A stretch of DNA of 32,000 bases from Acaryochloris marina S15 (GCF_018336915.1 NZ_CP064923.1:2970001-3002000), one strand, 5' to 3'; shown: positions 1,925 through 11,651, counted from the first letter of the stretch. The notes: a model not told the origin generated them from the letters alone. Translations and numbers: made by a program.

Positions 1925-4249
1925 TTAGCTCACTTCAAGCGGTAACCAAACCTCAAACCTAGTATGCCCTGGCTGGCTTTGACATTCGACCTTTCCTTGG
2001 TGTTTATCAACAATTTTACGGACAATATCCAGCCCTAAACCACTCCCTTCACCCGCAGGTTTTGTCGTGAAAAAGGGATCAAATATCTTAGCTTGCACCT
2101 CCTCAGGGATGCCACCTCCTGAATCCGTAATGCTGACCAGAATTCCCTGTTGATCCAGACCAATCGCTAATTCAATCTGTCCTTTATAATCCATAGCCTG
2201 CATGGCATTATGCAGCAAATTCGTCCATACCTGAGCCAGTTCTTCTGGGTAGCAAAGAATGTCTGGCACATCATCAAAGGCTTTGGTCAAATCGATGCCA
2301 TGTTTAATCTGGTTATGGTACAAGGTCAGCACCGTTTCTACGGTAGCGGGAACAGACGCTTTGACTTTCTCATTACTCAGATCTTGGCGAGCATAGCTCT
2401 TCAAGGCAAACACAATTTTGGCTGCCCGTCCCACGGCCAAGCGGATATTTTGAGTGTTGTTATGAATGACCGTCAAATCATAGGCAACATTCATAACCTC
2501 GGTATTGTTCGGCAGCTCTAGGATGGGCATAAACGGTGACAGATCAGCAGACACCCCCATCTTACTGAGGGTGCTGGCCAGGTCAGCAGCAGGCTCTAAG
2601 CTTTTCTCTACCAGGATTTTCTTCAAGCTTCGTTTGAGCTTACGCTCCTCGCGAGAGGTCAACAACTCCTGTTGCTGGGCCACCGCCAGTAACTCAAAAA
2701 ACGCGTCGGTTTGTTCTGGCTGTAATTGATCCAGAATTTGGGGGAGCCGCTGCATTGACTTCTCTAGGGAAGAGGCAATATTTTCGCCAGCTGCTTGAAT
2801 GGCTCCCAAGGGCGTATTGATTTCATGGGCCACCCCTGCTGTCAGTTGGCCTAAAGCCACCATTTTTTCAGATTGAACCAACTCCTGGGTTCGCTGTTGA
2901 ACTTCCTGTTCCAGAGACCGATTATATTCTGCTAACTGTTGCTCACTCTTTTTCAGGGCTTCGACCACCACGTTTCGCTCTTCCAAAGAGAGGCGTAGAT
3001 CATGGACCATTTGATTAAATGATCGAGCTAACTCACCCAACTCGTCAGAGCGGTTGAGGGCAACATTTTGCTGTAAGTCTCCTGAAGAAATCGCGGTGGC
3101 AGCTTCGTTAATTTTTAAGATCGGGCTGGTCACCCATCGGGCGGTCGCAACCCCAATTAGGATCGCAAACAGCAGAGCAGCAACCGATAGACCAACAGTT
3201 GAGCGGTTATTAGCATAGATTTGTTCCATGAAGTCTGCTTCTGGAACCACAACCACACTGAGCCAATCTAAGCCATGCTGATCCTTAAGGGGATTAACTT
3301 GAAGGAAATAACGCTGACCCTCAATATCGATCGCCAGCTGTTGGCGCACTGAAATCTCCTGCAGGGTCCCAAACCGTTTCAATAATTTCTCAGTGGTTGC
3401 CCTAACGACAGGGTCTTGGCTTTCTAGGGCAGGTAAACGCTGAGGTCCTTTCTCGGACGGAGTAAAGGGCTGTTCGGAAGTGGACGTCGCCACCAATAAT
3501 CCTGAGCGCTCCAGAATAAAACTTTTGCCGGATTTACCAATTTTGAGGGTTCGCAGAAAATCGCTAAACTGAGCAATCGATAGGTCCGTTGCTAAGACCC
3601 CTTGAAAGGTTCCAGACTGATCGTAATAGGGTTGTCCTAGGGTAATTGCTAAGGTCGGTGGATTCACCCAAGCATAAATATCGGTCCAAGTCGGCTTATC
3701 TTTTTTCTCGGGAATTAGGTACCAAGGGCGTTTTTGAGGCGCAAAGTTAGGGGATGTTTCTAATTTTGTCCCCCGTTGCCCATTTTGTTTGATGGAGTAA
3801 GTTTGTAAGTCTCCAGAATACTCCGTTACTTGATAGGTAAAACTGCCATCATCATTCGCAGCCAGCCCCACAAATTCACCTTGAGGCGTTCCAAACTGGA
3901 TGTAGCTAATCCGATCAAACACCTGGATCTGCCGCCAAAAATGACGTTCCATGCTGTTTAGGGTATTGGCTTTGAGCTGCCCTAAATCTAAAGCATGCTG
4001 ATTGAGTTGGTTGACGGCATGGGGAGCAGCCAAATAGGTTTGGGTTCGCTCAGCGATATGGACTTCCACTTCATCCGTCAACTGTTGGGCCAAGGATTCA
4101 ATGGACCGTTGACCATTCTGAAATGATAAATAGCCCACCAAGCCAACAGCACCGCAAACCTGCAATACAAAGGGCACCACCAGGACCGTTCTGAGCTTCT
4201 GGCGACGAGCAAGTTTTCCTGGAAAGGATCGCAAAGTTTGGATAAACAT
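1925..4249 (-). CDS. Sensor histidine kinase: TM, ~300-aa Cache-like periplasmic domain, TM, HAMP, coiled coil, H-box, HATPase_c
   Basis: 775-aa ORF. Two hydrophobic helices (res ~22-45 and ~353-372) flank a large extracytoplasmic region. HAMP-like SPILKINEAATAISSGDL...ELARSFNQMV. H-box GVAHEINTPLG. N-box WTNLLHNAMQAM, G1 DSGGGIP, G2 GSGLGL. The track start is TTG 4252; ATG at 4249 is more likely. Confidence 0.85.
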   Translation of the reverse strand: MFIQTLRSFPGKLARRQKLRTVLVVPFVLQVCGAVGLVGYLSFQNGQRSIESLAQQLTDEVEVHIAERTQTYLAAPHAVNQLNQHALDLGQLKANTLNSMERHFWRQIQVFDRISYIQFGTPQGEFVGLAANDDGSFTYQVTEYSGDLQTYSIKQNGQRGTKLETSPNFAPQKRPWYLIPEKKDKPTWTDIYAWVNPPTLAITLGQPYYDQSGTFQGVLATDLSIAQFSDFLRTLKIGKSGKSFILERSGLLVATSTSEQPFTPSEKGPQRLPALESQDPVVRATTEKLLKRFGTLQEISVRQQLAIDIEGQRYFLQVNPLKDQHGLDWLSVVVVPEADFMEQIYANNRSTVGLSVAALLFAILIGVATARWVTSPILKINEAATAISSGDLQQNVALNRSDELGELARSFNQMVHDLRLSLEERNVVVEALKKSEQQLAEYNRSLEQEVQQRTQELVQSEKMVALGQLTAGVAHEINTPLGAIQAAGENIASSLEKSMQRLPQILDQLQPEQTDAFFELLAVAQQQELLTSREERKLKRSLKKILVEKSLEPAADLASTLSKMGVSADLSPFMPILELPNNTEVMNVAYDLTVIHNNTQNIRLAVGRAAKIVFALKSYARQDLSNEKVKASVPATVETVLTLYHNQIKHGIDLTKAFDDVPDILCYPEELAQVWTNLLHNAMQAMDYKGQIELAIGLDQQGILVSITDSGGGIPEEVQAKIFDPFFTTKPAGEGSGLGLDIVRKIVDKHQGKVECQSQPGHTRFEVWLPLEVS

Positions 4250-4261
4250 CAACCCCTATCT

Positions 4262-4663
4262 CTATTCTTGAAATGCCGACAAGCCGGTTTTTATCACATC
4301 CATTAAATCTTCTTCATTCCAAGGCTTTGAAACATAAGCATGGAGTTTCATATTCTGATGAATTCGATCGACAGCAGATTGGTCTGCTTGCCCGGACAAC
4401 AACACCGTCACAATTTCTGGAAATTTTTGATTTAACTCGATCAGGAATTCATCCCCCTTGGTTCCGGGCATTAACCAATCTGAAATAATGATCAGAATTT
4501 CAACATCATCTTCTTTCAGTTCATCGATGACTTCCCAGGCTTCTTCAACACTCTCAGCGATTTCACAGGTATGCTGATCACCAAAATATTTACTAATTTG
4601 GTCACGCAGGCTTCTTAGCACTACAGATTCATCATCAACACAAATAATTGCTGAATTTGCCAT
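4262..4663 (-). CDS. Stand-alone response-regulator receiver domain protein
   Basis: ICVDDE...IIISDWLMPG (phospho-acceptor Asp context)...YVSKPWNEEDL. The ATG at 4663 (MANSAII) is preferred over TTG 4690. The stop lies 12 nt upstream of the kinase ATG, so co-transcription is likely. Confidence 0.85.
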   Translation of the reverse strand: MANSAIICVDDESVVLRSLRDQISKYFGDQHTCEIAESVEEAWEVIDELKEDDVEILIIISDWLMPGTKGDEFLIELNQKFPEIVTVLLSGQADQSAVDRIHQNMKLHAYVSKPWNEEDLMDVIKTGLSAFQE

Positions 4664-4877
4664 TTCTATTTTTATTAAGCCTCTAGACAATTACCTCAAT
4701 AATCCTTATTCATAAACAGAGCAATAGATTATTGTCTTTTGAAAATTATTTATTCTAAACAGTTCAAAAGAGCCAGTATAGGAAGCTGGGCATTGTGATC
4801 CCACAAACAACAGGACCATACCCAGTTTGCCCAGTTATTCTTCTGACTTGAAACTTTAGGAACAGGAGTTTACTTTT

Positions 4878-6203
4878 CTACAGTAAAGCGGCCGCCCGTT
4901 CAGCCAAATCAGACCGCTCACCTTGATACAAAGTAATATGGCCCGCTATGGACTCAGACTTAAATCGCTCCACTACGTAAGTCAACCCATTACTGGCCGC
5001 ATCTACATAGGGATTATCGATTTGCTCAGGGTCCCCGGTGAGAACCACTTTGGTATCTTCCCCGGCCCGAGTCAAAATCGTCTTAACTTCATGGGGAGTT
5101 AAGTTTTGAGCTTCATCCACAATCAAAAATTGTTTGGGAATGGTCCGTCCACGGATATAGGTAAGGGGTTCAATTTGGAGTAGCCCTTGGTCCATTAACT
5201 CCTCATGGCCCCGTCGCCAATGTTGAGGTTGCCCTGCCGCTTCTTGAGTCCCAAAAATCAGATCAAAATTGTCATAGAGGGGTTGCATCCAAGGGGTTAG
5301 TTTTTCGTCAATATCTCCGGGTAAATATCCCAAATCTCGTCCCATGGGCACGACGGGACGGGCAATTAACAGACGGCTATAGTTCTTCTCATCCGCTACT
5401 TTATGTAACCCTGCTGCGATCGCAATCAAGGTTTTGCCCGTTCCTGCTTTCCCCACCAAAGTCACTAAGGAAATATCGTCTCGCATCAACAATTCAAAGG
5501 CGAATTTTTGTTCGCGATTCCGCGCTCGAATTCTAGAAATGCCGTTATGGGGAAATTTGGGCAGGGGAATCACTTCCCCCGTGTGATCCCCCGCTAGGGC
5601 CAAGGCCGTGTGGGAAGGCTTTAGACTATCCACTAAAGTGACCGCCTGATTAGGCCATGTTTTTTCGGGTAGAGACGTCTGTCCTGCTTGAAATAGCTGA
5701 CTGATCGTGTCGCTCCCTACCATGACTTCAGTCATACCGGTATAAAGCCCTTCAAAATCAACCTTATCCGTGGAGTAGTCTTCTGCAGCTAGTCCTAAGA
5801 CATCGGCTTTGATGCGGAGATTGGTATCTTTACTCACCAAGGCCACGGGACATTGGCACTGATTTTTCAGTTCCAGGGCCACGGCCAAGATCGCGTTATC
5901 GGCTTGGTCCCCTTCTAATTCAGGTGGAAGTTCTTTGAGGGTGATGCGATCGCACAAGGCAACCCGTATCGTTCCTCCCTTCGGCAGGTCAATCCCATTT
6001 GTGAGTTGGCCCTGAGCCCTTAAATCATCTAAGGTTCGCGATACCTGACGAGCATTCCGCCCCGTTTCTTGGGGTTGCTTTTTGAACCGATCAAGTTCTT
6101 CGATAATCGTAATCGGCAAGACTACGTCGTTGTCCTCAAAGCGAAAGATGGCATTCGGATCATGCAGCAGTACATTCGTATCGAGGACAAACGCTTTTTT
6201 CAT
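4878..6203 (-). CDS. PhoH2-type protein: N-terminal PIN nuclease domain fused to a PhoH-like P-loop ATPase
   Basis: PIN motifs VLDTNVLLHDP, ITIIEELD, DNAILAVA. Walker A GKAGTGKT, Walker B FLIVDEAQN, and a PhoH-type C-terminus (VVLTGDPEQIDNPY). Confidence 0.85.
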   Translation of the reverse strand: MKKAFVLDTNVLLHDPNAIFRFEDNDVVLPITIIEELDRFKKQPQETGRNARQVSRTLDDLRAQGQLTNGIDLPKGGTIRVALCDRITLKELPPELEGDQADNAILAVALELKNQCQCPVALVSKDTNLRIKADVLGLAAEDYSTDKVDFEGLYTGMTEVMVGSDTISQLFQAGQTSLPEKTWPNQAVTLVDSLKPSHTALALAGDHTGEVIPLPKFPHNGISRIRARNREQKFAFELLMRDDISLVTLVGKAGTGKTLIAIAAGLHKVADEKNYSRLLIARPVVPMGRDLGYLPGDIDEKLTPWMQPLYDNFDLIFGTQEAAGQPQHWRRGHEELMDQGLLQIEPLTYIRGRTIPKQFLIVDEAQNLTPHEVKTILTRAGEDTKVVLTGDPEQIDNPYVDAASNGLTYVVERFKSESIAGHITLYQGERSDLAERAAALL

Positions 6204-6502: not shown

Positions 6503-6973
6503 TTACGACTTGATAGCACGGAGTTTGCGAGATAGCACAGCCGCCGATCCCATGCCACCAGAGAGAACAATCGCCACCAGGGGAATTTGAGGCGACTGGT
6601 GCTGAGGGACTTCGCTAATCTCATTCAGATTAATTCCCTTGGGCGTCACCGGCACCGTCAAGATATCTTGATGCCCCGACTCGCCAATGCTGACTTCCCA
6701 TTCTCCCGGCATTCTTTCGCTGGTATCAAAGGTAAACTGACCCTTTTCATCCGTCTCGGTCTCCATCACTGGCTCAGTCAGATTGTCAGGGGAGTAAATT
6801 TTGACCTTGGCCTTCTTATGGGGCTCACCCGTACTAAATACCGCCGTAAACTGAACCTTATTCGCTTCTTCTAATACATAGTTCGTCTGCAGGGCATGGG
6901 CCATAGCGCGAACAGGAACTCCCAGTACAGCCAACAGCAGGAGCGGCATTAATACTTTAGATTTCATCTGCAT
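6503..6973 (-). CDS. Small exported protein with a beta-rich (transthyretin/Ig-like?) domain and a C-terminal membrane anchor; function unknown
   Basis: Signal peptide MQMKSKVLMPLLLLAVLGVPVRAMA|HAL. Beta-strand-like alternation (KVKIYSPDN..GQFTFDTS..GEWEVSIGESGH). C-terminal hydrophobic helix IPLVAIVLSGGMGSAAVL followed by RKLRAIKS. The ATG at 6973 is preceded by AGGAAT; an alternative ATG is at 6967. Confidence 0.6.
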   Translation of the reverse strand: MQMKSKVLMPLLLLAVLGVPVRAMAHALQTNYVLEEANKVQFTAVFSTGEPHKKAKVKIYSPDNLTEPVMETETDEKGQFTFDTSERMPGEWEVSIGESGHQDILTVPVTPKGINLNEISEVPQHQSPQIPLVAIVLSGGMGSAAVLSRKLRAIKS

Positions 6974-7110
6974 TATTCCTAAGGTTTCGTTTTCAACTAA
7001 GGTGTCAGGACCAAACACTTTGAGATTGGCTCTATCCTACCGATTAATTCCCAATCTTTCACCCCATTCCAACCCAATTATTCCCCTAACCCCAAAAATT
7101 AGCGCACAGG

Positions 7111-10100
7111 CTAATCTCGACTCCAGACTTTTATGGCACTATTTTTGCTGCTACTGACCAAAGACTGACCATCGGCGGCAAAAGCCAAGGAATAAATATC
7201 ACCTTGATAGCCTGTAAGCGTATGACGCAAAGCCCCCGTAGAAAGGTTCCAGAGCTTTACGGTGCGATCTAGGCTGCCCGTTGCCAAGGTATTGCCATCG
7301 GGACTGAAAGTTACCGCCGTCACCGGCTTGGCATGCTCCTGAATGGTTTGATTCAATTTTCCAGACTTCAGATCCCAGAGCTTCACCGTCTTATCCTGGC
7401 TGGCGCTAGCTAACTGCTGACTAGAAGGTCCAAAGGCAATGGAAATCACCCGACCCGTATGTCCTTGGAAGGTCCGCATAAGCTTGCCCGTCTTCAAATC
7501 CCAGAGCTTCACCGTCTTATCGCTGCTAGCACTGGCTATCATCTGGCCATTGGCACTAATGGTCACAGACCGGACTTGTCCCGAATGCCCCTTGAGGGTG
7601 CGGACTAACTTGCCCGTTTTGATATTCCAAACTTTCAAGGTCTGATCTTCACTGCCACTGACCAGTAGAGTACCGTCGGGACTGATGGCTACAGACCATA
7701 CGGTCTTCGGGTGAGCCGCAAAGGTTCTCAGGAGCTTCCCGGTGGGTACATCCCACAATTTAATCGTGCAATCACCACTGGCACTAGCCAAAATCTTACC
7801 TTTGGGGCCTAGGGCAATCGTCCAAACCTGATCTTTGTGATCCGACAGGGTCCGAATCAGCTGGCCTTTACCTAAGTTCCACAGCTTAATATCGTTTTGG
7901 TCACCACTGCCGATCAGGGTCTTACCATCCGGACTGAGGGCAACGGACCAAATCGCCTGTTTCGGGGCATTTGACAAGGTTTTTAATTGAGCATTCTTCC
8001 AATTGATACCCGCTTGGCATTGGGAAAAGAGTTTCTGGGCAGAGGGATAAAGTCGAGAATCTTTGGGAATATTTTGGGTCTGGGCAATGCAGTTGTCATA
8101 GCGTTTCTGTTGGGCTAGGGACTGCCAAAATTCCATCTGCTGGGCTTCTTTCTGACGCTGTTGCCCCTCTTGTTGTTGACGCAGAATAGACATGAGTAAC
8201 AGCAGTGCGATCGCACCAGCCCCCGCAAACCACCATACCCGTTTGGGTACTGTTTGCAATTGACGCCAAGAGAGGGAAGACAGATTCCCTCGCAATCGAG
8301 CGTTTCGTACATACTGACTCACAGTCGTGGACAGGTTTTGCCCCATGGAACTGAGGTGCTGAGCAGAAGTCTGCAGGGTCTGTTGTCCCACCCCCAGAGC
8401 TTGGTGTAACGGCTGAATCACCGTTTGATTCGACCAGGTGGAACTGGGCGCTACTCGTCTAGGCACTTCCGGGGCTTGTCCAGGAAATTGAATCACCTGA
8501 ACCTGGCGAATAATTGCGGATTCAACCGGAATCGTATCCGCATCCGTTAAGCCCAAAGTCGCTTGAAACTGTCGAAACTGATCCTGCAAATAATCACTAA
8601 CCGGGTATTCTTGTCGCACGGCCTCCACAAAAGCCATGGCATATTCTTGCAGTTTCGTTTGATACGCCTTTCCAGGTTTACTCACCTCCGCTTCAATCGT
8701 CTTGGCCATCTCTAAATCAAGATCAAGGCTGGACTGAAGATTATCCAAAATCACCCGATTGACCGGCGATATTTCACCGCGGCCCGCATAGAATTCGAAC
8801 TGGCGGCGATAGGCAAATTGGGGCTGATCGATGGGAGCTTGGGCCAAGGCTAAATTTTGCACCGCCTTGACATTGTAAATTTGAGGTTCAATCGCCGGAA
8901 TCTCTTGTTTGACCTTGCGCTTCGCATAGGCATACCATTCTTCCACCGAAATACTGCCATCACAATTTTGATCCGCAGCCCCCGTTCTGAGCCCTTCCAC
9001 TAAATAAAACGTGTAGAGAGATAGATCAGCCCCCTTATGGACAAACGCATGGCGGGCTTGGGTCGCTGATGTCATGATCGTCCGCCCCAATCCTCCTAAA
9101 TATTGAGGGAGGTTTACCCCCCCTAGATGGGGATTTGAGGCAGAGGTAGAGGGTTGCCGATAGCAGCAATCCAACAGAACAACCTGTCGTTCTGCTTTAC
9201 TGTCATTCAGAATATCTTGCAGCAGATCAGCCGAAACCAGGGTTGAACGCACCACTTTATCTTTCGAGTTGGTGCGACTCATACTGGTGGTTAAACCAAA
9301 CCGGCCATGATCATCTAGTACCACCCCATGTCCCGAAAAATAGATGACGAGTAAATCATCAACATCCCGATCTTGGCAAAAACTTTCTAGGGATTCTGCC
9401 AAAATTTGGGGATTGGGGTTGAGTAGGGTTTGGACCTCATCAAAGGCCGCTATTTTGGGATTTTCCAGGACTTGCTTCATAACAGCAATATCCTGCTGTA
9501 CCCCTGGCAAGGGTTCAAATCCATGTTCACAATGACTGACCCCAATCAACAGGGCATTCTTAGTCGTGGGCACCCGAGCCATCGAGTCTAAGGTAATTCT
9601 CGGAGACTCTAGCAAGCGTTCAAGAGAACTCAGTAGGGGCTGATTGTCCACTTCTGGTGAGAGGGGGACAGCTGTTGTTTCTGGAGATATTTCTGGGTCA
9701 TTCCCTTTGCCATTCGCCAACTCTGACTCACCAGGAATTGCCACTGAGAAACTCAGAAGCTTACCTTTATTGAGCAACAACCGACATCGAGCCCGAGAAC
9801 CCGAAGGAATCGTCACCCCCGGTAATGTCGGTGGTAAATCTTCTATTTGATCAATGACTACCTTTTGCAGATCTGGAGAAACACTATGCCGTTCTATCAA
9901 CGTGACGGGGCCCCGTTCTAAGCAGGCATAGATTTTATCCAAGAGGGGATTATCCAGAGGCCCCGCTAAACAATAGGCAATAAAGTAGGGGATGTGACTT
10001 CGGCCTAAGTCATCATCCCCTTGGTTATACATCCAGCCAAATAAAGTGAGCTCAGAAGAGATTTGGGCAAGGTATGCTGCTCGATACCCCGGCTGAGGCG

Positions 10101-10245
10101 GCGCATAAGAATTCCAATACTTATAAACCACCTGAGTTAAAAAAACCTGTTTCACTTCCTCCGGGACATCAGCACTACTGAGAGTCTGAAAGCCCTGATC
10201 AGGGAAGCTAGTGTAAACCAGTTGACCAAGATCTAGCGTTAGCAT
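7111..10245 (-). CDS. Multidomain membrane protein: unknown N-domain (~125 aa), caspase-fold (C14/CHAT-like His-Cys) protease, EF-hand loop, helical linker, one TM helix, 7 WD40 repeats
   Basis: 1044-aa ORF. Caspase dyad contexts LLVIYFSGHG (His306, codon 9328-9330) and VVLLDCCY (Cys360/361, 9163-9168). EF-hand loop DQNCDGSISVEE (8938-8973). TM RVWWFAGAGAIALLLLMSIL (about 8179-8238). Seven repeats end in KLW/KVW. AGGAAG lies 8 nt upstream of ATG 10245. Confidence 0.85.
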   Translation of the reverse strand: MLTLDLGQLVYTSFPDQGFQTLSSADVPEEVKQVFLTQVVYKYWNSYAPPQPGYRAAYLAQISSELTLFGWMYNQGDDDLGRSHIPYFIAYCLAGPLDNPLLDKIYACLERGPVTLIERHSVSPDLQKVVIDQIEDLPPTLPGVTIPSGSRARCRLLLNKGKLLSFSVAIPGESELANGKGNDPEISPETTAVPLSPEVDNQPLLSSLERLLESPRITLDSMARVPTTKNALLIGVSHCEHGFEPLPGVQQDIAVMKQVLENPKIAAFDEVQTLLNPNPQILAESLESFCQDRDVDDLLVIYFSGHGVVLDDHGRFGLTTSMSRTNSKDKVVRSTLVSADLLQDILNDSKAERQVVLLDCCYRQPSTSASNPHLGGVNLPQYLGGLGRTIMTSATQARHAFVHKGADLSLYTFYLVEGLRTGAADQNCDGSISVEEWYAYAKRKVKQEIPAIEPQIYNVKAVQNLALAQAPIDQPQFAYRRQFEFYAGRGEISPVNRVILDNLQSSLDLDLEMAKTIEAEVSKPGKAYQTKLQEYAMAFVEAVRQEYPVSDYLQDQFRQFQATLGLTDADTIPVESAIIRQVQVIQFPGQAPEVPRRVAPSSTWSNQTVIQPLHQALGVGQQTLQTSAQHLSSMGQNLSTTVSQYVRNARLRGNLSSLSWRQLQTVPKRVWWFAGAGAIALLLLMSILRQQQEGQQRQKEAQQMEFWQSLAQQKRYDNCIAQTQNIPKDSRLYPSAQKLFSQCQAGINWKNAQLKTLSNAPKQAIWSVALSPDGKTLIGSGDQNDIKLWNLGKGQLIRTLSDHKDQVWTIALGPKGKILASASGDCTIKLWDVPTGKLLRTFAAHPKTVWSVAISPDGTLLVSGSEDQTLKVWNIKTGKLVRTLKGHSGQVRSVTISANGQMIASASSDKTVKLWDLKTGKLMRTFQGHTGRVISIAFGPSSQQLASASQDKTVKLWDLKSGKLNQTIQEHAKPVTAVTFSPDGNTLATGSLDRTVKLWNLSTGALRHTLTGYQGDIYSLAFAADGQSLVSSSKNSAIKVWSRD
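7114..7956 (-). repeat. Seven tandem 126-bp (42-codon) WD40-encoding units inside the 7111-10245 CDS
   Basis: Protein repeats have the form xVWSVAxSPDGxxLxSxSxDxTxKLWxLxTGKLxRTLxGH. An identical 24-mer ATCCCAGAGCTTCACCGTCTTATC occurs at 7372-7395 and 7498-7521, exactly 126 bp apart. Confidence 0.9.
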
Positions 10246-10268
10246 CAGAGGGTCTTCCTAAAGTGAGG

Positions 10269-11651
10269 TTACGGGTTAGGTTTGGACTGGGCCTTATCAG
10301 CCATCTTCCGGATTTCCTTCTTTAACGAATCCGTTGGCGCAGCAACCTCAGCCTTAGAAAATAGGGTTTTAGCAGCTGCATTATCCCCCTGTTCAACGCG
10401 CAATGTAGCTTTGCTGGTGAGAGCTAGAATGCTGTTTGGATCTATCTTCAGGATTTTGTCGTAGACCGTTTCTTCCTTCTGCTTGTTCCCATTCAGGGCG
10501 TATAGCCCCGCTAGTTCAAATAGAAAATCAGCCTTCTCCGGCTGTTGGTCCACCAACTTTTCCATAAGGGGTAGAGCCTTATCAAATTCTGTCAAATCCG
10601 AATAGAGCCGAGAGAGCTGCAGCAATGCTTCTGGATCAGTCGGGGACTGCTCCAAAATCTCCTGGTATTGTTGAACCTTTTCATTAGGAGTCAAGTTCGC
10701 TTGTTCAGTAGGGGAATTGCCGAGCAAGCCCGTTCCAAATCCAACCGCTACCGCCACGCCAACGGCGAGAAGGCCAGCGATGGCTGCCACTCCCCAAAGC
10801 TGTTTATTAGAGGTAGCTCTCCCCCCTCCTCTGGGACGAGAGAGAGATAAAGGCTGGGCACTATTGTCTAATAAACGGTTAAATCCACTAGCCAAAGACT
10901 GAGGTCGGCCTTTGCGATGAATTTTACTTAACTCTGTCGCCAACCAGAGCAATGGCGCAGAGGCTCCTTTTGCCTGCAATACCGACATTTTTCCATTTTT
11001 AACGATGGGAATCGTAGAGTAAAATCTGCGATATTGAATTTGATTGGCATCCAAACGGGCCATTAAGGGTCGAATATTTTCTTCTATTTTTAGTAATTTC
11101 TGGGGATTTTCTGCCAAAAGATCACATTTGGTCAGCACAATAGCAAAGACATAGGTCAAACCACTTTGCCGAGCGAGAGAAGCGATGGTTTCGACCTGTT
11201 TAACAATGCCTTGAAGCGTCTGGCTGTAAGCAGAATTATTAAACAGCGTATAGGTATCAATAAAGACACAACAACCATGGGAGTCCATCACCATTTTCTG
11301 AAAATTGGGGTTGTCGTTATTGCAAATTTCTCCAGGGATATCCCACCAGCGAAACTGACAGAGATCCTTCTCACCAAAAAGGTTTTGAGTTTTCGCGGAA
11401 AACTCAAAATTAGTCATTTTCATGGTTGCTGGCGGGTATTGACCCGTTTGGGCAATATATTCCAGCAATGTGTTCAAATTATGTTGAACCTGGGTATCCT
11501 GACAGTCAAACCAGGTAGATGATTTTCGCGACCCACTATTAGCTTTTTGTTCGGCATAGCTACCCACTAAAAAGACGGTTTTACCTACACCCCGATGACC
11601 AATGCTGAGTAAGTTAAACGTCTGCGTTTTTGTTTTTGACGGAGCATTCAT
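10269..11651 (-). CDS. Membrane-anchored small Ras-like GTPase with C-terminal TPR repeats
   Basis: G1 GHRGVGKT (res 18-25), G3 WDIPGE (103-108), G4 TKCD (174-177). A basic stretch RPRGGGRATSNK precedes TM LWGVAAIAGLLAVGVAVAVGFGTGLLG (res ~285-311). An acidic region follows, then about 3 TPR-like repeats (ALLQLSRLYSDLTEFDKALPLMEKLV..., FLFELAGLYALNGNKQKEETVYDKILKIDP..., ALTSKATLRVEQGDNAAAKTLFSKA). The stop lies 23 nt upstream of the caspase-WD40 ATG. Confidence 0.8.
   Translation of the reverse strand: MNAPSKTKTQTFNLLSIGHRGVGKTVFLVGSYAEQKANSGSRKSSTWFDCQDTQVQHNLNTLLEYIAQTGQYPPATMKMTNFEFSAKTQNLFGEKDLCQFRWWDIPGEICNNDNPNFQKMVMDSHGCCVFIDTYTLFNNSAYSQTLQGIVKQVETIASLARQSGLTYVFAIVLTKCDLLAENPQKLLKIEENIRPLMARLDANQIQYRRFYSTIPIVKNGKMSVLQAKGASAPLLWLATELSKIHRKGRPQSLASGFNRLLDNSAQPLSLSRPRGGGRATSNKQLWGVAAIAGLLAVGVAVAVGFGTGLLGNSPTEQANLTPNEKVQQYQEILEQSPTDPEALLQLSRLYSDLTEFDKALPLMEKLVDQQPEKADFLFELAGLYALNGNKQKEETVYDKILKIDPNSILALTSKATLRVEQGDNAAAKTLFSKAEVAAPTDSLKKEIRKMADKAQSKPNP

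Follow-up and report, generated by a model that had tools for sequence, protein, structure and literature searches.

Two adjacent genes in a 32,000-nucleotide (nt) stretch of the Acaryochloris marina S15 genome (NZ_CP064923.1:2970001-3002000, here called the window, with positions counted from its first letter) raise the question of what links a small GTPase to a caspase-like protein encoded directly beside it. On the whole, we favor the reading that the pair is a transmembrane GTPase/longin switch that would have a caspase as its output in this lineage. The module has no earlier description and was found here solely in cyanobacteria; the pair is not described in the literature searched on cyanobacteria with small GTPase, Roadblock, WD40, longin, MglB, or DO-GTPase2. 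The genes and the gap between them are as follows.

10269 to 11651, minus strand: gene 1, an open reading frame (ORF) of 460 amino acids (aa) encoding a membrane-anchored small GTPase with a C-terminal TPR domain
10246 to 10268, minus strand: intergenic gap of 23 nt, with AGGAAG at 10259 to 10254, 8 nt before the gene 2 ATG
7111 to 10245, minus strand: gene 2, an ORF of 1044 aa with, in order, an N-terminal domain (NTD, longin-like), a caspase domain, a helical middle region, a transmembrane (TM) helix, and a WD40 domain

A sequence-only reading of the window had described two co-directional genes separated by a 23-nt gap with an AGGAAG motif. This holds, with the correction that it is the minus strand that carries both, and apart from the strand the other sequence-level statements of that reading stood up to ORF analysis and profile searches. 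The two genes are likely co-transcribed, because a scan of the gap turned up neither a promoter-like nor a terminator-like site; elsewhere in the region such sites occur at background level. Both genes are genuine and conserved rather than fortuitous ORFs, since orthologs of the same architecture are present at six Acaryochloris genome loci. The closest genome is that of A. marina MBIC11017, whose gene 1 product shows an identity of 93% over its whole length and of 98% within the G domain.

One genome per species was scanned with a GTPase profile, which yielded 80 loci, or 81 with the window copy. These range from Gloeobacteraceae to Nostocales, and all are cyanobacterial except for one metagenome-assembled genome (MAG) labeled Gracilibacteria, which is probably mislabeled. 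A word-limited search returned 463 GTPase homologs, and every named one is cyanobacterial. Identity within the family is 40 to 58% across the phylum. The ORFs of the 80 loci were then searched with each domain of gene 2 separately. At 51 of the 80 genome loci, the GTPase gene has a gene for the NTD (residues 1 to ~175) close by; in most of these the two are direct neighbors, as a rule with the NTD gene just downstream on the same strand and at times upstream or divergent. The caspase and the middle region were found among these ORFs only in the Acaryochloris orthologs. The conserved partner of the GTPase is the NTD of gene 2 rather than the caspase; most family members have no caspase.

The GTPase and the NTD have also diverged in step. 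Their pairwise distances are correlated (Mantel r = 0.86, a value reached by none of 999 permutations), and their clusterings are near-identical, including old paralogous pairs within one genome. Together, these results indicate that the pairs were duplicated and retained as cognate pairs. A. marina keeps two distinct pairs (loci L002 and L024). In the second (L024:6477-9341, A. marina MBIC11017, ~1.75 Mb), the gene order is reversed, with an NTD-Roadblock protein of 446 aa encoded upstream of a GTPase-TM-TPR protein of 455 aa, and each protein is 46 to 48% identical to its pair-1 counterpart at L002.

The proposal that genes 1 and 2 form a functional pair is supported by their adjacency. The full gene 2 architecture stands next to the GTPase gene at six of six Acaryochloris genome loci (L002 to L007) and on an unrelated JGI metagenome contig (L082), where a GTPase-TM-TPR gene whose product is 56% identical is followed, after a 40-nt gap, by a gene whose 957-aa product repeats this architecture and keeps SGHG and DCC intact in its caspase. 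About 20 of the 150 listed representative clusters of NTD proteins have the arrangement NTD-caspase-middle region-TM with or without WD40, with 40 to 50% identity to gene 2 in the caspase, and one such caspase-bearing member (WP_166281176.1) is annotated as coming from Lyngbya confervoides. These clusters, the Lyngbya protein, and L082 refute the idea that the caspase fusion is specific to Acaryochloris; the caspase version is a minority subfamily that is present beyond this genus. On another JGI metagenome contig (L083:4306-8889), two tandem GTPase-TM-TPR genes whose products are 59% identical precede a caspase-free NTD-WD40 gene.

What kind of domain the conserved partner is was addressed by sequence and by structure prediction.

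9712 to 10245, minus strand: NTD, aa 1 to 178 of gene 2, family defining, longin-like in its AlphaFold2 (AF2) model

NTD homologs were collected with a profile from the locus translations and by running phmmer in full over 1.84 billion representative proteins. The latter sorted the domain into 180 clusters (50% identity), and nearly all of the 150 that were listed have it beginning within the first few residues. Invariant or near-invariant residues are S13, G18, W44, F69-G-W71, D78, R82, P86-Y87, and G112-P113. The domain has no sequence match in Pfam, NCBIfam, or the PDB, where a profile search was empty even at E ≤ 10, and 45 NTD sequences scanned against Pfam (E ≤ 1) yielded scattered noise and no GAP1 family. 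An AF2 model built from 51 sequences (mean predicted local distance difference test [pLDDT], 89.3; predicted template-modeling score [pTM], 0.86) has the order β-β-α-β-β-β-α plus a small extension, with strands at residues 4 to 14, 18 to 24, 55 to 63, 66 to 74, and 86 to 94 and helices at 29 to 43 and 99 to 111. As modeled, the NTD has the longin topology β1-β2-α1-β3-β4-β5-α2(-α3). The longin fold class serves in eukaryotes and in Myxococcus as a small-GTPase platform, GTPase-activating protein (GAP), or guanine nucleotide exchange factor (GEF).

The Foldseek matches of this model in the PDB with a probability above 0.6 were the T6SS (type VI secretion system) protein TagF (9t0n), FLCN-FNIP2 (6ulg_N), GATOR1 (9v0j_A and 7t3a_B), SEAC (8adl_S), and DENND10 (8p0v_M), the SEAC and GATOR1 matches being Nprl subunits. 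The sole other match above this probability was the Vibrio sensor kinase CqsR, and the rest were low-probability GFP-like barrels and other unrelated folds. Weak as they are, the structural matches point coherently to longin/DENN GTPase regulators. Independent support for a predicted link to GTPase regulation comes from protein fusions, because 56 of 250 distinct family proteins carry a Roadblock/LC7 (MglB-type) domain directly after the NTD. Other fusions join the NTD to TM plus WD40, to TM plus a periplasmic-binding-protein (PBP) domain, to V4R, or to GAF. We predict that the NTD is a longin-like domain of the GTPase-regulator type, an assignment based on predicted structure and genomic context only. 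In the model and alignment, the loop between β4 and β5 holds the invariant Asp78 and the near-invariant Arg82, which are candidate catalytic or interface residues.

The product of gene 1 would be the switch itself, and its parts are as follows.

10902 to 11624, minus strand: G domain, aa ~10 to 250 of gene 1, from G motifs and an AF2 model
10725 to 10799, minus strand: TM helix of gene 1, aa 285 to 309, Kyte-Doolittle mean of 2.4, Gly/Ala rich, with a basic patch before it
10329 to 10688, minus strand: about three TPR repeats, aa 322 to 441, with TPR_17, TPR_16, TPR_19, and TPR_14 above threshold

The GTPase motifs that had been read from the sequence are present: GHRGVGKT as G1 (G18 and K24), WDIPGE as G3 (D104 and E108), and TKCD as G4 (T174), all invariant or near invariant in alignments of 20 to 49 homologs. 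A conserved candidate switch I threonine, Thr76 (in YPPxT), and a G5-like S-A/T-I motif (YST(A)I) complete the G1 to G5 pattern of a TRAFAC GTPase (GxxxxGKT, Thr76, DxxG, TKxD, and S-A/T-I). The label "Ras-like" does not fit, however. No Ras, Rab, Arf, or Roc profile of Pfam matched gene 1 at E ≤ 1, and the best Pfam match of the G domain is a borderline one to DO-GTPase2 (15.8 to 17.7 bits versus a cutoff of 27; E = 0.003 at 17.7 bits), against which homologs score 21 to 28 bits, with one reaching the cutoff. The TIGR00231 small_GTP model gave 15.7 bits, below its cutoff of 42.5. The fold of the AF2 model (pLDDT, 84.3) is that of a G domain with insertions, and it resembles EF-Tu, Ran, Rab, Ras, Arf, and RagD to a similar degree (template-modeling scores of 0.5 to 0.65, target normalized, for EF-Tu, Ran, Rab, and Ras). 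A PDB search with the full GTPase alignment was dominated by TPR matches. Pfam found no NACHT/NB-ARC match on gene 1, hence no STAND module, and homologs gave P-loop-level NACHT matches below the cutoff (E of 3e−4 to 0.08). The basic patch was confirmed, as were the single TM helix by hydropathy and the approximately three TPRs by Pfam; the TPR matches above threshold span residues 329 to 441. Family members of ~320 aa have no TPR domain.

Several residues of the G domain are conserved across the family. Arg20, near invariant in the family, occupies the position of Ras Gly12, and Glu108, directly after DxxG (the Walker B glutamate), is invariant. Five cysteines of the G domain are near or fully invariant: C98; C110, two residues past G3; C127 and C128 in SHGCCVF; and C176 in TKCD, at the position of Ras Cys118. 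The cysteine set and Arg20 could point to redox or metal sensitivity and to an unusual catalytic mechanism. The dimerization-activated GTPase hGBP1 uses a P-loop arginine, and by this analogy Arg20 at the Ras Gly12 position hints at a cis or dimer-dependent catalytic mechanism.

Gene 2 carries the domain that gives the pair its possible output in Acaryochloris. The parts that follow the NTD are listed below.

8890 to 9564, minus strand: caspase (Peptidase C14) domain, aa 228 to 452, from Pfam and NCBIfam
8938 to 8973, minus strand: EF-hand-like loop DQNCDGSISVEE, aa 425 to 436, at the end of the caspase domain, a pattern seen by eye
8251 to 8835, minus strand: middle region, aa 471 to 665, helical and repeat-like, with no family match
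8176 to 8241, minus strand: TM helix of gene 2, aa 669 to 690, Kyte-Doolittle mean of 2.14, with a basic patch before it
7999 to 8175, minus strand: post-TM linker, aa 691 to 749, with conserved C718 and C742
7114 to 7998, minus strand: seven-bladed WD40 propeller, aa 750 to 1044, Pfam WD40 E = 2e−78, seven stretches

By profile search, gene 2 is a true member of Peptidase C14 (PF00656; E = 3.2e−14, 53.6 bits versus a cutoff of 21.4, profile positions 2 to 222 of 233). The closest NCBIfam model is NF047832, "caspase, EACC1-associated type" (E = 1.4e−38; 132.5 bits, just below its cutoff of 140), and a CHAT match of 25.5 bits overlaps the stronger Peptidase_C14 match. A PDB search with the caspase domain alone gave spurious ABC transporter matches and no solved caspase. 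Both catalytic contexts are intact, as had been read from the sequence, with His306 in YFSGHG and Cys360/361 in LDCCY; the histidine context of cyanobacterial caspases has been published as (Y/F)SGHG (PMC2853523). The DCC motif is invariant in seven orthologs, and His306 is kept in six of the seven. Within gene 2, conservation among orthologs is highest in the caspase, at 78 to 96% identity. The description of the loop D425 to E436 as a canonical EF-hand was right as to pattern, since it fits the canonical one and DQNCDGxIS(V/I)EE is invariant in seven orthologs, but the Pfam EF-hand matches are below threshold (E of 0.05 to 0.2).

Residues 1 to 226 and 468 to 759 of gene 2 have no Pfam family match. 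The middle region is present in every caspase-bearing member, and weaker or shorter copies occur in the non-caspase partners of L057 and L083. It holds two similar segments of ~50 aa, the first of which reads "...Y..F..Y...G.IS...R..L..L...L.L....A..IE.EV." The TM helix is conserved in the orthologs, and C718 and C742 of the linker are present in all seven of them and in L057. The earlier description of a basic patch holds, as do, by hydropathy and Pfam, those of one TM helix and seven WD40 stretches.

If the two proteins work together across a membrane, their orientation matters. A TM segment follows the G domain in 80 of 81 family GTPases, and the exception ends at a contig end. Partners of the WD40 and PBP types have a TM helix ahead of that domain; Roadblock partners have none. 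The mean number of Lys plus Arg residues is higher on the N-terminal side of the TM segment than on the C-terminal side, both in the GTPases (2.72 versus 1.05, P = 8e−10) and in the partners (2.55 versus 1.68, P = 0.002). A single span combined with a GTP-dependent N-terminal domain on the inside would leave the TPR and WD40 domains extracytoplasmic and the G domain and caspase cytoplasmic. An extracytoplasmic C terminus also fits the PBP fusions, the conserved post-TM cysteine pair, and the Pro/Thr-rich linkers of Nostocales partners. These lines of evidence agree with the topology first proposed, with repeat domains outside and enzymatic domains inside. A family member is present in a Gloeobacteraceae MAG. 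Gloeobacteraceae are a lineage without thylakoids, so there the outside compartment would be the periplasm.

Within a pair, the external domains tend to complement each other. NTD-TM-WD40 partners go with GTPases that lack TPRs (16 loci), and GTPases that have TPRs go mostly with soluble NTD-Roadblock partners (13 loci). This distribution suggests that, as a rule, at least one protein of each pair would have an external domain; in the caspase subfamily, both would. Small residues abound in both TM helices (AIAGLLAVGVAVAVGFGTG in gene 1 and FAGAGAIA in gene 2), which, speculatively, would suit packing between the two proteins in the membrane.

From these features, the following mechanism can be proposed for the favored GTPase/longin switch. 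Gene 1 would encode a TRAFAC-class small GTPase with a one-TM anchor, its G domain in the cytoplasm and its TPRs in the periplasm or lumen. The longin-like domain of gene 2 would carry a variable module, which here would comprise a cytoplasmic caspase, a TM helix, and an external WD40 domain. Signals at the external TPR and WD40 domains would alter engagement of the longin-like domain by the GTPase, whose nucleotide state would then set the proximity, clustering, or conformation of the partner. For the GTPase, GTP-dependent dimerization is a possible mode of action, proposed because of the near-invariant Arg20 and Glu108 and the distant kinship to DO-GTPases. The caspase would be switched on by induced proximity, possibly with a contribution of Ca2+ through the EF-like loop, and caspase-free relatives would route the same switch to other outputs. 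Physical interaction of the two products, the topology, the activity of the protease, and any physiological role are inferred from the sequences, and the NTD may act as a GAP, a GEF, or an effector platform. A bolder version, which we hold only tentatively, is a transmembrane G-protein signaling system of the cyanobacteria's own, in which a dimerizing GTPase and a true bacterial longin partner would couple periplasmic TPR, WD40, or PBP sensing to a cytoplasmic output and which would include a GTPase-gated caspase in Acaryochloris and Lyngbya.

Some observations weigh against this reading. A nearby NTD gene is missing at 29 of the 81 loci (window copy included), and 21 of the 81, mostly without an NTD gene, adjoin a C39-type ABC exporter. 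At the latter (L010 to L017 and others; for example, L012:4545-6698), the genes encode a C39-peptidase ABC exporter of ~720 aa, a HlyD-like protein of ~437 aa, and an unknown protein of ~500 aa. These GTPases possibly form a separate subgroup, maybe tied to peptide export, and the exporter-adjacent loci without an NTD indicate that the GTPase can act in another context. The best Foldseek match of the NTD has an E value of only 3e−3, with a template-modeling score of ~0.33 over ~110 of 180 residues. When the NTD family was aligned by hhalign with its own Roadblock domain, the probability was below 1%, which rules out the NTD as a sequence-recognizable Roadblock duplicate. An arginine at the Ras Gly12 position argues against a classical GAP that supplies an arginine finger in trans. 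Finally, the ortholog of Acaryochloris sp. CRU_2_0 (L005:9410-12544) has YSGYG, with tyrosine in place of the catalytic histidine and with DCC and the EF-like loop kept, so proteolysis may be dispensable. Such His-to-Tyr variants are common among cyanobacterial metacaspases (PMC2853523). The change typifies cyanobacterial pseudo-orthocaspases.

Of the other explanations, the one that survives best is that the pair serves antiphage defense or another conflict, by abortive infection or programmed death, with an NTPase switch and repeat sensors that release a killing or arresting caspase. The gene 2 caspase is closest to the "EACC1-associated" type of conflict systems and the best Pfam match of the GTPase, DO-GTPase2, comes from the same paper and has the Walker B glutamate in common (PMC7159879). 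A constant GTPase and NTD joined to variable C-terminal modules also recall the constant-plus-variable organization of conflict systems, and the generic PADLOC caspase model matches gene 2 (E = 3e−10). However, no PADLOC model matches the GTPase domain or the NTD, the matches being confined to generic caspase, WD40, and TPR models, and no GAP1 or EACC1 component was found at the locus. The family was found on cyanobacterial chromosomes only, with no plasmid copy in a tblastn search of the NTD against plasmids, and at 40 to 58% identity it is neither patchy nor hypervariable. Most of its members carry no effector enzyme, and the RsmB-like methyltransferase gene, the PIN-PhoH gene, and the two-component pair nearby do not make a defense island. 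The suggestion that the locus follows the logic of STAND/CHAT conflict systems has little direct support for similar reasons: there is no STAND module, and the pair is chromosomal and conserved, with housekeeping-type neighbors. We consider a conflict function unlikely.

Still less probable is that the caspase-like domain is a noncatalytic scaffold or pseudoprotease within a GTPase module that organizes the envelope or periplasm, for example, in peptide export, cell surface assembly, or cell-cell interaction. The tyrosine of L005 and the frequency of such variants in cyanobacteria would fit this idea, as would the function of most family members without a caspase, the GTPase subgroup that adjoins C39-ABC/HlyD exporter genes, and the nature of TPR, WD40, and PBP as binding domains, none of them catalytic. 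The state of the caspase itself speaks against it, given that the window protein, five of the six other orthologs, and L082 all retain an intact His-Cys dyad with its contexts, and that no other part of gene 2 is so well conserved. That genes 1 and 2 are merely neighbors with unrelated functions, as the loci without an NTD gene might suggest, is very improbable in view of a 23-nt gap with a ribosome-binding site and no terminator-like site, adjacency kept across the phylum together with co-divergence of the proteins, and extracytoplasmic domains distributed complementarily between GTPase and partner.

Upstream of the pair lies a gene for an RsmB-like methyltransferase. The downstream genes encode a 171-aa protein, secreted or with a TM segment, along with a PIN-PhoH protein, a response regulator, and a dCache histidine kinase.

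6503 to 7018, minus strand: ORF of 171 aa directly downstream of gene 2, with a signal peptide-like N terminus and a hydrophobic C-terminal tail
1925 to 6203, minus strand: dCache-HAMP histidine kinase of 775 aa, single-domain response regulator of 142 aa, and PIN-PhoH protein of 441 aa

The 171-aa ORF has no Pfam match and is kept at this position solely in seven Acaryochloris loci; its annotated GTG start is probably too far upstream. The PIN-PhoH gene clusters with Acaryochloris-type loci alone (six loci), and the histidine kinase and response regulator genes fall outside the range compared across loci. The kinase, the regulator, and the PIN-PhoH protein are probably unrelated to the module, since none was seen beside the pair elsewhere in the family.

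The module is a newly defined two-protein unit that extends across cyanobacteria and whose defining NTD is missing from Pfam and NCBIfam. If the proposed mechanism is true, a bacterial caspase would be controlled in a new way, by a small GTPase switch as opposed to a STAND ATPase, a CRISPR signal, or EACC1, and it would be the first prokaryotic caspase under small-GTPase control. A longin-GTPase pair would then also exist beyond eukaryotes, Asgard archaea, and the T6SS protein TagF. Eukaryotic longin/DENN regulators are currently derived from prokaryotic Roadblock proteins (PMC3521125), and a bacterial longin-type GTPase partner would bear on their origin. The predicted membrane-spanning layout, in which the binding domains face outward and the G domain and protease inward, suggests an outside-in signaling route in cyanobacteria without histidine kinases. 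Nostocales strains, which are tractable relatives, carry the simpler caspase-free pair, so the module is directly testable there.

How does the pair compare with known systems? It is not a STAND/CHAT system, as it has no NACHT/NB-ARC module. Systems with EACC1-associated caspases resemble it in having two membrane-associated gene products with a caspase of the same subtype encoded by the 3' gene (PMC7159879; PMC12642450), and some of their members have a TM helix and an extracellular PBP domain after the caspase. The present 5' gene, in contrast, encodes GTPase-TM-TPR with no EACC1 match, the caspase is internal (from residue 228) rather than N terminal, and the NF047832 score of 132.5 bits falls short of 140, so the pair was rejected as a member.

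Gene 2 shares with cyanobacterial orthocaspase-WD40 proteins the C14 p20 domain, the intact (Y/F)SGHG and cysteine, and the C-terminal WD40 domain (PMC2853523, PMC3501461). Its A. marina ortholog is probably the entry "cbMC-beta, WD40(7)" of the 2010 catalogue (Jiang 2010, PMC2853523). The published catalogues (PMC2853523, PMC3501461), however, list the caspase as N terminal and are silent on the 225 residues ahead of it, on the TM helix that separates it from the WD40 domain, and on the upstream GTPase. WD40 orthocaspases typically possess ~14 repeats and lack a TM helix, whereas gene 2 has 7 repeats and a TM helix.

In the "GTPase-centric" DO-GTPase/GAP1 conflict systems (Kaur, Burroughs, Iyer, and Aravind 2020, PMC7159879), the DO-GTPases are defined by a Walker B glutamate. 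Likenesses are the best Pfam match, this glutamate, the downstream partner gene, the membrane association, and a constant core with variable modules; the tandem GTPase genes of L083 recall the "double GTPase" arrangement. In contrast, the scores here are at or below the Pfam cutoff, and the TM helix is C terminal rather than N terminal. There is no N-terminal zinc ribbon and, by Pfam, no GAP1-N (N1 or N2), GAP1-M, or GAP1-C domain. The family was also found only in cyanobacteria and looks vertically conserved rather than sporadic. On the missing GAP1 domains and the borderline GTPase score, membership in these systems was rejected.

A closer analogy than STAND/CHAT is that of a small GTPase with a longin or roadblock regulator, as in MglA/MglB and Rag-FLCN. 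Here, as in MglA/MglB, Rag-FLCN/FNIP, Rag-GATOR1, and Rab-DENN, a small G protein adjoins and co-evolves with a partner of predicted longin type, many paralogs have a true Roadblock/LC7 domain immediately behind the NTD, and the logic would be that of a nucleotide switch with a platform, GAP, or GEF. The pair does not belong to MglA/MglB proper, because the GTPase family differs and gene 2 has no Roadblock domain. By sequence the GTPase lies outside the MglA, Rag, Arf, and Rab families, with an arginine at the Ras G12 position and a glutamate after G3, and it differs from their GTPases in being integral to the membrane through one TM helix. No similarity in sequence between the NTD and known longin or roadblock families could be detected. 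A further difference is that the gene 2 product would span the membrane and that partners in this family carry WD40, PBP, or caspase modules. We therefore predict that the pair is a variant of the theme "small GTPase plus longin/roadblock partner," in which the membrane-spanning layout and the caspase output would be new.

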